Shown: positions 52,726 through 52,810 of the stretch, one piece after another
Numbering within the stretch: position 1 is the first letter of the stretch
How the letters are laid out: the number at the start of each line of letters is the position of its first letter
Assembly: GCF_053078305.1 (NCBI RefSeq)
Contig: NZ_CP166879.1
DNA length: 64,000 nucleotides
Reading direction: 5' to 3' (one strand)
Made by a program: the position numbers and the translations under genes
Notes under the pieces: generated by a model
Databases searched by the model: none
Told to the model about the DNA's origin: nothing
The model's input: the letters and a program-made list of their open reading frames with translations, nothing else

Positions 52726-52736
52726 AAATCGCTTTA

Positions 52737-52754
52737 CCTCAAGTTAACTTGAGG
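52737..52754. promoter_or_regulatory. SoxR operator palindrome within the soxS promoter spacer
   Basis: Perfect 18-bp palindrome CCTCAAGTTAACTTGAGG lying between TTTACC (-35) and TATACT (-10), which are 19 bp apart. Confidence 0.8.
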
Positions 52755-52810
52755 AATTATACTCCCCAACAGATGAATTAACGAACTGAACACTGAAAAG
52801 AGGCAGATTT

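Follow-up and report, generated by a model that had tools for sequence, protein, structure and literature searches.

The question raised by this locus is whether the short gap between the divergently transcribed soxR and soxS genes contains a complete redox-responsive promoter, and whether its sequence departs from that of the well-studied Escherichia coli K-12 promoter in any way that would change the behaviour of the switch. Superoxide dismutase, efflux (acrAB, through SoxS) and tolerance of multiple drugs are under the control of the soxRS switch. Analysis of the 64-kb stretch of DNA carrying the locus, hereafter called the window, indicates that the gap is almost certainly PsoxS/soxR, the bidirectional promoter native to the soxR-soxS locus of E. 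coli. Its anatomy, its identity to K-12 and its conservation were observed directly, and none of the sequence features runs contrary to this assignment. The elements of the locus are listed in Table 1.

Table 1. Genes and promoter elements of the soxR-soxS locus, in window coordinates.
Feature	Position	Strand	Remarks
ghxP	50366-51715	-	neighbour on the soxR side
sraL/RyjA	52128-52268	+	Hfq-binding sRNA; 153 bits
soxR	52261-52725	-	154-aa MerR-family [2Fe-2S] redox sensor
soxR-soxS intergenic regulatory region	52726-52810		85 bp, between the divergent ORFs
soxS -35 hexamer TTTACC	52733-52738	+	
SoxR operator (SoxR box) CCTCAAGTTAACTTGAGG	52737-52754		perfect 18-bp palindrome
soxR transcription start (approximate)	~52748	-	read from the Table S2 markup of PMC12825309; +/-1-2 nt
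soxR -10 hexamer TATAAT	52761-52756	-	reverse complement of the window sequence
soxS -10 hexamer TATACT	52758-52763	+	
soxS transcription start (approximate)	~52772	+	read from the Table S2 markup of PMC12825309; +/-1-2 nt
soxR -35 hexamer TTCGTT	52785-52780	-	18 bp from TATAAT
soxS	52811-53134	+	107-aa AraC/XylS-family regulon activator
pdeC	53137-54732	-	soxS neighbour

The order of genes in the window corresponds to that of K-12, pdeC-soxS-soxR-ryjA-ghxP, read on the opposite strand, and the two genes flanking the operator across the 85-bp gap encode a MerR-family protein, SoxR, and a member of the AraC/XylS family, SoxS. The identity of both products is clear. SoxR scores 248.4 bits against the NCBIfam equivalog TIGR01950 (cut-off 116.9) and aligns over its full length with the crystallised E. 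coli SoxR (PDB 2ZHG/2ZHH, E = 3.5e-101), while SoxS scores 228 bits against the equivalog NF007584 (cut-off 174). The cysteines of SoxR are found at exactly positions C119, C122, C124 and C130, which keeps the cluster motif CX2CXCX5C; these four residues are the ligands of the [2Fe-2S] cluster according to a review of the MerR family. At the other end of soxR, the sraL/RyjA gene is convergent with it and overlaps its last 8 nt (52261-52268), a layout that matches the K-12 annotation. A hairpin of 13 pairs (52237-52267) could act as a terminator for the soxR as well as the sraL/RyjA transcript.

The promoter directed towards soxS comprises the hexamers TTTACC and TATACT separated by a 19-bp spacer (52739-52757), a length within the sub-optimal 19-20 bp range of MerR-type promoters, and the spacer is overlapped by a dyad operator, as is also typical of this promoter type. 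The operator, CCTCAAGTTAACTTGAGG, is composed of two 9-nt arms with 100% complementarity and no loop, and is identical to the published sequence of the E. coli SoxR box. The initial annotation had described an 85-bp spacer between the genes, a perfect 18-bp palindrome within it and a 19-bp separation of the hexamers, and all three proved correct (52726-52810, 52737-52754 and 52739-52757, respectively). Its placement of the palindrome exactly between the hexamers holds only approximately: the operator does overlap the spacer, but it shares 2 bp (CC) with the -35 hexamer and ends 3 bp short of the -10 hexamer, so that the dyad centre (52745/52746) is displaced by 2.5 bp from the centre of the spacer towards the -35. 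The predicted soxS leader is about 39 nt long and contains the sequence GAGG at 52798-52801.

A standard sigma-70 scan of positions 52000-53300 did not call the soxS promoter, because it accepts spacers of 16-18 bp and the soxS spacer is 19 bp long. The missing call fits a deliberately sub-optimal promoter and is uninformative rather than contrary. A 19-bp separation of the soxS hexamers is likewise stated to be sub-optimal in a recent study of this promoter (PMC12825309). In the same work the 'soxS down' mutation, which replaces ggtaaa (TTTACC read on the other strand), abolished activation by SoxR, and mutation of the complete site, the single SoxR site of the region, abolished binding of SoxR in EMSA, while mutation of a nearby half-site was without effect on binding. 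In the window, the sequence CCCCAAC located within 52764-52779, between the shared -10 element and the soxR -35 hexamer, resembles a SoxR half-site (CCTCAAG). It probably corresponds to the published predicted partial site, which did not bind SoxR in EMSA.

Comparison with the mapped soxS promoter of K-12, suggested by the initial annotation as a check, revealed identity to strain MG1655 at 85 of 85 intergenic bases, among them those of the soxR promoter on the opposite strand and of the soxS (b4062) and soxR (b4063) leaders. A mutated palindrome or an altered spacer length, either of which would have contradicted the claim of fully conserved geometry, was looked for relative to K-12 and neither was found. 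The absence of intergenic differences is accompanied by 11 nucleotide differences from MG1655 in the two coding regions (over 874 bp), ten of them synonymous; SoxS is identical to its K-12 counterpart and the only change in SoxR is I40V, at a residue of its N-terminal, DNA-binding half.

The region is also conserved within the species. The 85-bp gap is identical in 5380 of the 5420 complete E. coli genomes having it and a 36-bp core (52731-52766) in 5398 of 5419. By contrast, only 922 E. coli genomes match a 351-bp query extending into the coding flanks at 99% identity or more, so that the non-coding switch is under tighter constraint than the genes under its control. Changes within 52739-52758, between the soxS hexamers, occur in 17 of 5419 E. 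coli genomes (~0.3%), a number obtained by subtracting the matches to the 36-bp core made with a 28-nt word from those made with an 11-nt word, and about four further genomes are changed at the edges of the core. One natural disruption was identified: in E. coli E138 (NZ_AP022351.1), a human isolate, an IS1-family element (3200-4060) is inserted in the soxS promoter at a point equivalent to 52751-52759 of the window and has duplicated 9 bp of its target, GAGGAATTA. The -35 hexamer and an intact SoxR box remain on the soxR side of the element, and only the -10 hexamer is left in front of soxS. The soxS gene of E138 is thereby uncoupled from SoxR, and the end of the insertion element may drive its expression. 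In the same collection, three matches to the soxRS region are on records that carry a plasmid label, and no match to the region was obtained for 6-7 of 5426 E. coli genomes.

The substitution in SoxR raises the question of whether the promoter sequence could be right and the circuit nevertheless abnormal in this strain, either silent or constitutive, owing to I40V or to defects in partners encoded elsewhere (the Rsx/RseC reduction system or the promoters of the regulon). Residue 40 lies in the half of the protein that contacts DNA, and the reducing system required for an inactive SoxR, Rsx/RseC, is located beyond the region covered by the analysis. Against this, the exact V40 form of SoxR is present on at least 1000 contigs and carries the label of a multispecies Enterobacteriaceae SoxR; other Enterobacterales with an identical operator have I, V, M, T, S or F at residue 40; and SoxR is full length with its cluster ligands intact. 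The exact SoxS sequence is likewise found on at least 1000 contigs. I40V is thus a common natural allele at a variable position and is very unlikely to have an effect, and an abnormal circuit behind a correct promoter is highly improbable. The circuit should work in this strain, judging by the genes and promoter encoded here, although its function also depends on outside components such as the SoxR-reducing Rsx/RseC system.

Conservation beyond E. coli was assessed by a cross-species scan with the pattern CCTCAAGNNNNCTTGAGG, using one genome per species, which returned at least 120 loci, all of them selected for carrying the arms of the box. Beyond E. coli, the box lies between soxR and soxS in at least 12 loci of Enterobacterales. 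The 12 listed belong to Citrobacter (2), Escherichia albertii (1), Enterobacter (4), Superficieibacter (1), Klebsiella sp. (1), Pantoea (2) and Rosenbergiella (1), and their proteins are 67-98% (SoxR) and 63-98% (SoxS) identical to those of the window, with values of only 63-68% at the extreme. A 32-bp block, CTTTACCTCAAGTTAACTTGAGGAATTATACT (52732-52763), is invariant in all of these 12 loci, including the 18 positions that were free in the search pattern, each of which is 100% conserved among the loci listed. Mean identity beside the block falls to 65% over the 6 bp upstream and 53% over the 31 bp downstream. The soxS spacer is 19 bp long in each of the 12 loci, and the central TTAA of the box, also free in the search pattern, is invariant in them.

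Outside this group, at least 19 boxes have a soxR homologue within 400 bp and lack soxS, among them those of Vibrio, Caulobacter, Microbacterium, Devosia and others, which matches the published picture of non-enteric SoxR acting directly on few targets. Many boxes of the form CCTCAAG-N4-CTTGAGG, with centres such as CATG and GCGC, were found in Streptomyces and other actinomycetes with no soxR within 400 bp. Such boxes often occur several to a genome, consistent with dispersed targets of a SoxR regulon. Some matches in archaea and Bacteroidota are probably due to chance.

Chance has also to be considered for the operator itself, which could in principle be an accidental inverted repeat or encode an RNA hairpin, such as a terminator or a leader structure. 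In mononucleotide shuffles of the 64-kb window, perfect 18-bp palindromes of any sequence occur 0.255 times on average, and 23.5% of the shuffled windows contain at least one; a second such palindrome is indeed present in the window at 31091-31108. For the operator sequence itself, by contrast, only 0.01 occurrences are expected with up to three mismatches, and for the TTTACC-N19-TATACT frame 0.11 with up to one mismatch. The significance of the operator is in its sequence identity and position, and not in palindromy alone. An accidental repeat is rejected on account of this identity to the published SoxR box, the position and the conservation, the palindrome being invariant across species while its flanks diverge. 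As for a hairpin, the palindrome separates the starts of two divergent genes, a position that calls for no terminator. Since the soxS start is downstream of the palindrome and the soxR start inside it, neither mRNA would contain both arms, and a hairpin or terminator role is rejected for this reason. Taken together, the probability that the palindrome is either of these things is negligible, and the assignment as the SoxR operator of PsoxS/soxR stands. Elsewhere in the window, the frame TTTACC-N19-TTTACT at 45581-45611 (+) matches with one mismatch and has no palindrome in its spacer; it is probably a chance occurrence. The longest palindrome of the window is a perfect 20-bp one, CGTTATTGGTACCAATAACG, at 31090-31109, and 15 nt after it lies a SECIS_2 selenocysteine insertion element (31125-31179, + strand, 87 bits), presumably as part of a selenoprotein gene, fdhF for example.

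The opposite strand of the operator region carries the promoter of soxR. Its -10 hexamer is a perfect TATAAT that shares the bases TATA (52758-52761) with the soxS hexamer TATACT, and the approximate soxR start falls within the operator palindrome. The approximate start of soxS fits the distance of 10-23 bp between divergent starts, and a -10 element with a shared TATA on opposite strands, combined with starts read off at ~52748 and ~52772, is the arrangement of a bidirectional promoter. The sequence AGTATAATT, which covers the soxR -10 region, is invariant in the 12 other-species loci listed. The -35 hexamer varies more: Citrobacter, Enterobacter and Superficieibacter have TTCGTT or TTCGTC at this position, and neither was found there in the compared loci of Pantoea and Rosenbergiella.

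These features agree with the published description of PsoxS/soxR as a bidirectional promoter (PMC12825309, 2026). Table S2 of that work gives the strand in the soxR direction as ttcgtt-18 bp-tataat, and its 'soxR up' mutation converts ttcgtt to ttGACA. Basal transcription was found to be higher towards soxR, because the 19-bp spacing exists only in the soxS direction, and SoxR strongly activated soxS. SoxR occluded the start of soxR together with part of the soxR -10 element, and since soxR was still blocked by SoxR when activation of soxS had been disabled by the 'soxS down' mutation, repression was attributed to direct occlusion. SoxS modestly repressed both transcripts. The initial annotation had presented the region as a switch in which oxidised SoxR remodels the over-long spacer to activate soxS; this account is supported, but it is incomplete, having missed the shared -10 element of a bidirectional promoter and the direct block of soxR (PMC12825309).

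With the soxR start and part of its -10 element under the SoxR site, and with repression persisting in the 'soxS down' mutant, the palindrome could be supposed to serve mainly the negative autoregulation of soxR, activation of soxS being secondary. The strong SoxR-dependent activation of soxS from the same single site (PMC12825309) argues against such a ranking, as does the invariance of the 19-bp spacing and of both soxS hexamers in all 12 listed loci, neither of which is needed for autorepression alone. That autoregulation is the main purpose is extremely unlikely. The two roles coexist, and autoregulation is a complement to the bidirectional soxS/soxR switch rather than a true rival of it.

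The soxR leader is predicted to be only about 23 nt long (52748 to 52726), and its sole Shine-Dalgarno-like element is the GAGG(T) of an operator arm, with GAGG at 52741-52738 on the - strand, 11 nt ahead of the soxR ATG. The distance from the box to the soxR ATG is 11-12 nt in all 12 other-species loci listed. This GAGG may act as the soxR ribosome-binding site and may thereby add a translational constraint to the operator. A tentative explanation, which we regard as possible but somewhat doubtful, is that the 32-bp block has been frozen across Enterobacterales by at least four overlapping functions, which in our proposal are the -35/-10 frame of soxS, the SoxR operator, the -10 element and start of soxR, and the soxR ribosome-binding site. 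If this is true, a single set of bases would link the binding of SoxR with both the transcription and the translation of soxR. All of these functions but the ribosome-binding site have already been published, and novelty would be limited to the translational layer and to the extent of invariance between genera.

SoxR binding, soxS activation and autorepression can be assigned to the window by analogy with published work on the identical K-12 sequence. The switch would then operate as follows. A SoxR homodimer would occupy the 18-bp palindrome in both redox states, and the 19-bp spacing would place the soxS hexamers out of phase for sigma-70 RNA polymerase, so that soxS would be nearly silent as long as the [2Fe-2S] clusters stay reduced. 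A change in the conformation of SoxR would follow when the clusters lose one electron to redox-cycling compounds or superoxide, or become nitrosylated; the bound dimer would kink and untwist the centre of the palindrome, realigning the hexamers, and the polymerase could then initiate at ~52772 to produce SoxS, the activator of the regulon. On the - strand, the same DNA would serve as the soxR promoter with its start at ~52748, and since this start lies inside the palindrome, bound SoxR would repress soxR by occlusion, irrespective of whether it activates soxS. Going by the title of a 1997 paper of Hidalgo & Demple, the spacing of the promoter elements reportedly sets the basal expression of soxS and can convert SoxR from an activator to a repressor.

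The individual steps of this scheme have precedents in the literature. The SoxR dimer binds the dyad between the soxS -35 and -10 elements, leaving the promoter off in the reduced form and activating it in the oxidised form. Promoters with 19-20 bp spacers are activated by MerR-family regulators through kinking and untwisting of the operator centre, and this distortion is directly visible in the crystal structure of the SoxR-[2Fe-2S]/DNA complex (2ZHG), as described in the MerR-family review. The Rsx/RseC system returns SoxR to its reduced state. Among the triggers discussed are superoxide, redox-cycling drugs that oxidise SoxR directly (Gu & Imlay 2011) and effects linked to NADPH. The superoxide and nitric-oxide response to which the initial annotation assigned the circuit is its classical label, but triggering through the direct action of such drugs on SoxR is recognised as an alternative.

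The soxS promoter shares its general design with other MerR-family systems, including MerR/Pmer of Tn501 and Tn21, CueR/PcopA, ZntR/PzntA and BmrR/Pbmr. In all of these a dyad operator lies in an over-long spacer of 19-20 bp, the regulator is bound in both states and kinks and untwists the spacer, and the regulator gene is often divergent. The signal is different, being the binding of a metal or drug in the MerR-family systems and the redox state or nitrosylation of the [2Fe-2S] cluster in soxRS. Unlike the other systems, soxRS has as its direct target a second transcription factor, soxS, which makes it a two-stage cascade.

The CCTCAAG/CTTGAGG arms are shared by non-enteric SoxR boxes, known from Pseudomonas, Streptomyces, Stenotrophomonas (mfsA), Vibrio and others, which are often located beside soxR; in the S. 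maltophilia mfsA promoter the box also lies in a 19-bp spacer. In these bacteria SoxR controls a few effector genes directly and there is no soxS. The four central bases of these boxes vary (for example CATG or GCGC in Streptomyces), in contrast to the TTAA of the 12 listed loci with both soxR and soxS. As a bidirectional promoter, PsoxS/soxR resembles the E. coli promoters acrA/acrR, bioA/bioB, fepD/entS as well as bdcA/bdcR, where divergent starts 10-23 bp apart are served by one pseudo-symmetric -10 element. The opposing transcript is blocked by regulator occlusion at PsoxS/soxR, and by RNA polymerase competition at acrA/acrR (PMC12825309).

The strain's copy of this redox switch, which ranks among the best characterised in bacteria, is intact and wild-type. 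As a system it is the textbook switch, already known, and its presence here adds nothing to current knowledge. Mildly useful are the extreme conservation of the core within E. coli and across Enterobacterales, and the existence of rare natural disruptions of the promoter, represented by the IS1 insertion of E138 and the 17 genomes changed between the hexamers.

Outside the locus, the window contains two tandem arrays of naRNA4/CssrE repeats, with five copies at 1678-2161 (+) and six copies at 33648-34285 (-), as well as single copies at 4638-4718 (-) and 44819-44890 (-).
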